From a virus (taxonomy: Duplodnaviria > Heunggongvirae > Uroviricota > Caudoviricetes): a DNA stretch of 8,625 bases. Both the position numbers and the translations under genes were made by a program. The DNA lies in the IMG/VR virus record IMGVR_UViG_2529293076_000018; one strand, 5' to 3'. This document shows positions 518-1,260 of this stretch, one piece after another. Each line of letters opens with the position of its first letter. Position 1 is the first letter of the stretch. The notes beneath the pieces are model-generated. The model saw nothing but the letters and a program-made list of their open reading frames with translations. It made no database searches and was not told the origin of the DNA.

Positions 518-1260
518 ATGACACAGACTGAATCAGCGATTCTGGTGCATGCCCGGCGGTGTGCGCCTGCGGAGTCGTGCGGCTTCGTGATAGGCACCCC
601 GGAGGGCGAACGGTACCAGCCCTGCGTGAATATTTCTGCAGAGCCGGAGGCGTATTTTCGTATTGCGCCGGAAGACTGGCTGCAGGCAGAGATGCAGGGG
701 GAGATTGTGGCACTGGTCCACAGTCATCCCGGTGGGCTGCCCTGGCTGAGCGAGGCTGACCGGCGGCTGCAGATAAAGAGCGCACTGCCCTGGTGGCTGG
801 TCTGCCGGGGTGACATTCACAAATTCCGCTGTGTGCCACATCTGACAGGACGGCGCTTTGAGCACGGGGTGACGGACTGTTACACGCTGTTCCGGGATGC
901 TTATCATCTGCGGGGACTGATATGCCGGATTTTGAGCGTGAGGATGACTGGTGGCGCAATGGTCAGAACCTGTACCTGGACAATATGGAGGCGACTGGTT
1001 TTTACAGGATTTCCCTGCCTTCCGCACAGCCTGGCGATATCCTGCTGTGCTGCTTTGGCGCATCGGTGGCCAATCATGCCGCCATATACTGCGGCAACGG
1101 TGAACTGCTTCACCATCTGCCTGAACAACTGAGTAAACGGGAGAGGTATTCCGAAAAATGGCAACGACGAACGCATTCTGTCTGGCGTCACCGCCACTGG
1201 CACGCATCTGCCTTCACGGGGATTTGCAACGATTTGGCCGCCGCCTCAGCCTGTACGTGA
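518..1260 (+). pseudogene. K: Tail assembly protein K (gpK-like, MPN/JAMM plus NlpC/P60 domains), reading frame broken by an apparent 1-nt deletion near 910-916
   Basis: ATG at 518 opens MTQTESAILVHARRC…, with a JAMM-like motif (HSHPGGLPWLSEAD) and a conserved Cys in …GVTDCYTLFRDAYHL. That frame then drifts into non-homologous sequence and stops at 1132. The homologous continuation (…MPDFEREDDWWRNGQNLYLD…LLHHLPEQLSKRERY…) is in the adjacent frame, open from 862 to the stop at 1258-1260. The junction is at the G-run 912-915 (ctgcggggactg). The 3' end overlaps the start of I, as in lambda. Confidence 0.75.

Follow-up and report, generated by a model that had tools for sequence, protein, structure and literature searches.

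Gene K is required for assembly of the lambda tail, as established by classical genetics. Its product, lambda gpK (tail tip assembly protein K), consists of a Prok-JAB domain followed by an NlpC/P60 domain, and members of the NlpC/P60 family carry a Cys near the start of the domain and His residues later. Mass spectrometry did not detect the protein in the lambda virion, and it is regarded as non-structural (PMC10721106). The PDB contains no structure of gpK, the only relative found there being the distant JAB entry 2kks. The K gene studied here lies in a stretch of prophage DNA of 8,625 bp that was analysed as a whole (the window). It has the same place as lambda K in the gene order L-K-I-J, the same overlap with gene I and the same succession of Prok-JAB and NlpC/P60 domains. 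It differs from lambda gpK in that the deposited open reading frame (ORF) is interrupted at codon 132, which makes an intact protein impossible from the deposited sequence.

The lambda G/GT genes are known for a conserved, programmed −1 frameshift at a slippery heptamer. The frame change in the window likewise falls in a lambdoid tail-assembly gene, but it is not conserved and lacks a slippery site. The defective lambdoid prophages of Escherichia coli O157 (Sakai Sp1–Sp18; Asadulghani et al. 2009, PMC2669165) belong to the same prophage family as the window. Most of the Sakai lambdoid prophages are defective, several of them in morphogenesis genes, yet several were transferred to K-12 via prophage–prophage interactions (PMC2669165). 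Another comparison is with O157 prophages assembled as drafts or from long reads only, in which indel errors occur; like the lesion in the window, these errors are single-base, private or sporadic, and located in multi-copy tail genes. The K deletion in the window is unlike such errors in that it lies in a 2-base run beside a paralogue-variable stretch, with no long homopolymer. Judged from sequence comparison, the missing base is probably an error in the consensus of the draft rather than a mutation in the bacterium, a reading to which we give about three chances in four.

Source and gene content of the contig

The whole window corresponds to contig AKLY01000014.1 of assembly GCA_000267065.1, which was the single record returned by an exact match of the J product from position 2144; the J product from position 2141 had no exact match. 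AKLY00000000, a draft of 2012, belongs to E. coli O157:H7 strain TW09109 and comprises 66 contigs that total 5.57 Mb. This strain was among 26 draft genomes published in 2013, a project in which sequencing was carried out either with Illumina alone (assembled with Velvet) or with Illumina and 454 FLX/XLR as a hybrid (assembled with Celera). The method used for each strain is absent from the genome paper; the low contig count suggests that TW09109 went through the 454 hybrid route.

The ORFs and their Pfam matches identify the window as the tail-tip end of a lambdoid prophage, with L (10–507), K (518–1260), I (1158–1835) and J (from 2076) in that order and with K overlapping I. The features are as follows.

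10..507, plus strand: 3′ part of L, minor tail protein (Pfam Phage_tail_L, E 2e-71; synteny with annotated L in the related loci L001 and L002); the contig begins within L
518..910, plus strand: K codons 1–131 in the original frame, encoding JAB/MPN (residues 4–105) and the first ~21 NlpC/P60 residues including Cys121 (878–880)
909..911, plus strand: site of the missing G, placed by alignments; all top genome matches have 92 nt against the 91-nt query, and 9/9 IMG/VR matches are 42 nt long, extra base included
911..1260, plus strand: K codons 132–247, shifted to the −1 frame with respect to codons 1–131, encoding the remaining NlpC/P60 (His187, His199/200)
1130..1132, plus strand: premature stop of the shifted 5′ frame; predicted product of 204 aa, made up of 131 native and 73 out-of-frame residues
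1158..1835, plus strand: I, tail assembly, intact (Pfam Lambda_tail_I; annotated homologues); shares ~100 nt with the 3′ end of K
2076..5554 (body 2141–5554), plus strand: J, its start severed from the body by a single-base deletion
5622–6221: lom (ORFs and Pfam)
6280..7500, plus strand: stf, side tail fibre with collagen-like repeats; +A at 7050, −G at 7261, stop at 7096–7098
7769..7813, plus strand: altered region between stfC (small fibre C-terminal gene) and the nleG effector that follows it and ends at 8458; the two are fused in frame

The closest DNA matches to the whole window are E. coli O157:H7 prophages in which three nleG genes adjoin ydfJ. Identity is 98.7%, and the matched stretch in these prophages comprises 8,638 bases against 8,625 in the window. 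Going by the ydfJ/Rac site, the prophage type of the window may be that of Sp10. Sp10 is reported to retain all morphogenesis genes, and the K lesion of the window is not reported there (PMC2669165). The tail module with the K region occurs at 8–12 places per O157 genome, counted as places per record in the DNA comparison; the window is a free-standing contig composed throughout of such repeated DNA. A phage collection contained no close copy of the window sequence, the top match reaching 93.7%.

Genes I and J are separated by a spacer of 240 nt (1836–2075), which contains a 39-codon ORF at 1881–2000. On one side of this ORF lies a terminator-like hairpin of the minus strand (1864–1848) and on the other a strong plus-strand hairpin (2002–2025, followed by a T-run), and the unit 1836–2075 looks like a small inserted ‘moron’. 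The spacer has no annotated feature in the RefSeq regions that were compared.

Position of the frame break in K

The K frame starts at the ATG at 518–520 and remains open until the stop at 1130–1132. In the second frame the final upstream stop is at 859–861; this frame is open from 862 and terminates at 1258–1260, and the two frames overlap at 862–1130. The first-pass annotation of this DNA had proposed that a frame change of 1 nt in the interval 905–925 splits K and that a single added base would restore a continuous ORF of 247 codons, and both proposals are confirmed. Insertion of one G gives 744 nt (247 codons and a stop), and the resulting protein is identical to WP_078186082.1 (‘C40 family peptidase’) at 245 of its 247 residues. 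The missing base had been assigned to the G-run at 912–915. Alignment with intact K alleles, the check that the annotation itself had recommended, instead places the loss between 909 and 910, where one G is missing from the GG doublet in CTG-G-CGGGG. Relatives read CAT CTG GCG GGG where the window reads CATCTG-CGGGG, and the added G restores the Ala codon GCG that is found in all relatives compared. The deposited junction is CTGCGGGG, with a single G. Neither half of K carries further damage.

In the Pfam analysis the repaired K contains Prok-JAB at residues 4–105 and NlpC/P60 at residues 111–224, the latter covering profile positions 1–105. The assignment of a JAB/MPN domain is supported by a Prok-JAB match with an E value of 4e-17 (residues 3–105) and by the HxH motif HSHP at residues 68–71. 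As deposited, the 204-aa 5′ product has Prok-JAB as its sole Pfam match, and the 3′ ORF covers profile positions 39–105 only of NLPC_P60. Cys121 of the DCYTLF sequence, the putative catalytic residue, is located upstream of the break, and His187 and His199/200 are located downstream. An intact NlpC/P60 domain with Cys and His in one polypeptide is obtained only after the G is restored. The break had been described at first as lying between the JAB and NlpC/P60 domains, a description that has to be corrected. The shift at codon 132, 10 codons beyond Cys121, falls inside the NlpC/P60 domain, and the peptidase domain is thus cut in two rather than two intact domains being separated.

The K gene of the window is a patchwork of two paralogue types. 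Positions 500–620 and 1160–1300 match one type exactly, and positions ~780–1140 match the other type except for the missing G; the switch points lie near 620–780 and 1140–1160. The maximum identity of the K region (500–1300) in complete genomes is 98.3%, with 97.6% for the best O157:H7 match and 97.0% for the best EDL933 match. A natural K allele with a similar mosaic pattern exists in L001 (98.3%), and the mosaic structure alone is therefore no proof of a chimeric consensus.

Distribution of the K deletion and of further indels

No exact (100%) match of a 91-nt query across the break (870–960) was present among 5,426 complete E. coli genomes. The query was matched at 95–99% by 308 records, and among the matches listed all 30 were identical to it but for one extra base (92 against 91 nt). 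A pattern search of IMG/VR, in which either form of the junction was allowed, returned nine matches, each with the extra base. The frameshifted 204-aa product had no exact record among the called genes of a large public collection, and neither form of the junction was matched in a contig collection that is too narrow to be informative here, each species being represented by a single genome. Only one assembly carries the lesion, whereas identical flanking sequence around the intact base is widespread.

The complete assemblies of strains 86-24 and FORC_044, both of the long-read era, have K, tape-measure, J and stf genes of the homologous prophage annotated as frameshifted, with K located there at ~5480–6221. 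Their K frameshift was considered as the same lesion and rejected, as it lies near window position 811; the kind of lesion is the same in all of these genes and the positions are other. Frameshift lesions thus recur independently in assemblies of multi-copy O157 tail genes. A 112-aa 3′ ORF on record was likewise rejected as a second case of the frameshift, the contig of that other assembly starting exactly at ATG 922.

Base 1 of the contig in question, the short-read contig AARGAO010000233.1, is window position 922. Positions 917–921, just 3′ of the deletion, form the stretch of greatest difference between K paralogues, and the data suggest that they are a branch point at which assemblers break or mis-join.

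Indels were called throughout the window against its best references. Five are present besides the K deletion, all of them single-base.

2085: −G in a G5 run; same allele in 4 complete genomes
7050: +A in an A3 run; same allele in 3 complete genomes
7261: −G in a G5 run; same allele in 3 complete genomes
7785: −A in an A5 run; same allele in 0 complete genomes
7813: −T in TT; same allele in 0 complete genomes

Runs of 3–5 identical bases hold four of the five further indels, or four of six when the K deletion is included. The sets of genomes that share the indels at 2085, 7050 and 7261 are different for each. The features affected are J, stf and the spacer between stfC and nleG. In J, the change from G5 to G4 at 2081–2085 cuts the GTG start and the first codons (2076–2144) off the rest of the gene. 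This allele, examined as a 91-nt segment, is shared by 86-24 (twice), FORC_044 and PV15-279, and J is annotated as a pseudogene in three regions examined. In stf, the changes from A3 to A4 (7050) and from G5 to G4 (7261) lie 211 nt apart and compensate each other, with the collagen-like Gly-X-Y stretch between them out of frame. The shifted stretch contains the stop at 7096–7098, and a further difference, 9 nt long and in frame, lies near 7167. At the end of stfC the stop codon is altered from TAG to TAC, and the deletions at 7785 (A5 to A4) and 7813 (TT to T) flank a terminator hairpin, CCGGAGtccgGCTCCGG-T6. The TAC change and both deletions together create a single ORF (7502–8458) in which Phage_fiber_C is fused to NleG, and the gene calls of the assembly include this ORF as a gene of 318 aa. 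Even if the K deletion were real, K would not be the sole lesion in the contig.

The further indels of the same type are not accompanied by matching substitution damage, and the substitutions have the look of changes that passed selection. K differs from its nearest allele by 11 synonymous and 2 non-synonymous codons, and five bases of the window are shared with none of 16 related loci, four of the five being synonymous. Spontaneous indels in E. coli are about a tenth as frequent as base substitutions. With three private and three rare indels against at most five private and mostly silent substitutions, natural decay is hard to accept, and the combination fits the pattern given by indel-prone consensus calling.

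Explanations for the missing base

The K deletion is probably an error because it is private to one contig, because five more indels accompany it and because the contig is a short one of multi-copy sequence in a draft assembly. The patchwork make-up of K, matched at no more than 98.3% in any complete genome, and the position of the break at a paralogue-variable spot point the same way. It is known that 454 reads miscall run lengths and that collapsing paralogues into one consensus produces indels at sites of difference between copies. The consensus of this contig may have been fed by reads of more than one paralogous prophage or by miscalled run lengths in 454 data; single-base indels would then be expected in short runs and at points of divergence among paralogues. 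In the bacterium K would be an intact gene of 247 codons that encodes a JAB/MPN domain and, after it, an NlpC/P60 domain. The context of the deletion counts against an error, since the missing G lies in a 2-base run and such a run is a weaker setting for 454 errors than a long homopolymer. The frequency of real defects in O157 prophages counts against it as well. An artefact, a real pseudogene and a functional shift would none of them be novel. The biological weight of the lesion is small, and its use is as a caution for genome scans: short multi-copy prophage contigs in draft assemblies carry single-base indels that mimic pseudogenes.

The deletion could alternatively be real, a recent frameshift private to TW09109 that inactivated K in one decaying lambdoid prophage. 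The product would be the 204-aa protein with JAB intact and NlpC/P60 destroyed, and tail tips would depend on the K of other prophages. The morphogenesis defects of the Sakai prophages set a precedent for such an event, as do K, J, stf and tape-measure genes annotated as frameshifted in other assemblies, and the undamaged state of both K halves would fit a very recent one. We nevertheless consider it unlikely, given that the deletion is absent from the complete genomes and from the nine IMG/VR matches, that five other single-base indels fall within 8.6 kb in which substitutions are mostly synonymous, and that the source is a short draft-assembly contig of multi-copy sequence. A real deletion would add one more defective prophage gene to a lineage known for them and would probably be masked by the many co-resident copies of K.

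The first-pass annotation had further argued that the prophage would be unable to build infectious tails. This is doubtful, as the lesion is probably not biological and K could plausibly be supplied in trans in a polylysogen. Complementation by a co-resident prophage, if the deletion is real, is made plausible by the view of gpK as non-structural and by the 8–12 highly similar K copies in each O157 genome; the presence of so many near-identical K genes, together with the transfer of defective prophages, makes the claim of no tails too strong for a polylysogen. The combined case, in which the deletion is real and tails are still made, either with K in trans from the 8–12 paralogues or with a JAB-only fragment that is sufficient, seems to us very improbable. 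If true, it would amount to a natural experiment on the question of which domain of K tail-tip assembly requires.

A functional frame change, in which −1 ribosomal frameshifting or transcriptional slippage restores K or in which two polypeptides are made, the second from ATG 922, is a negligible possibility, and a programmed shift is excluded for practical purposes by the absence of both conservation and a slippery site. This agrees with the initial view that no programmed frameshift is known at this position in lambda-like phages. ATG 922 does sit 5 nt past the purine-rich GGGGA (912–916), and single-tRNA slippage is possible in principle on G GGA (913–916). The ORF, however, is continuous in every relative examined and the intact form is common, the overlap at 862–1130 contains no X XXY YYZ heptamer, K contains no homopolymer of at least 6 bases, and Rfam detects no family in the window. 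A two-piece K would also place Cys121, the putative catalytic residue, on a different polypeptide from the His residues that belong to the same NlpC/P60 domain.
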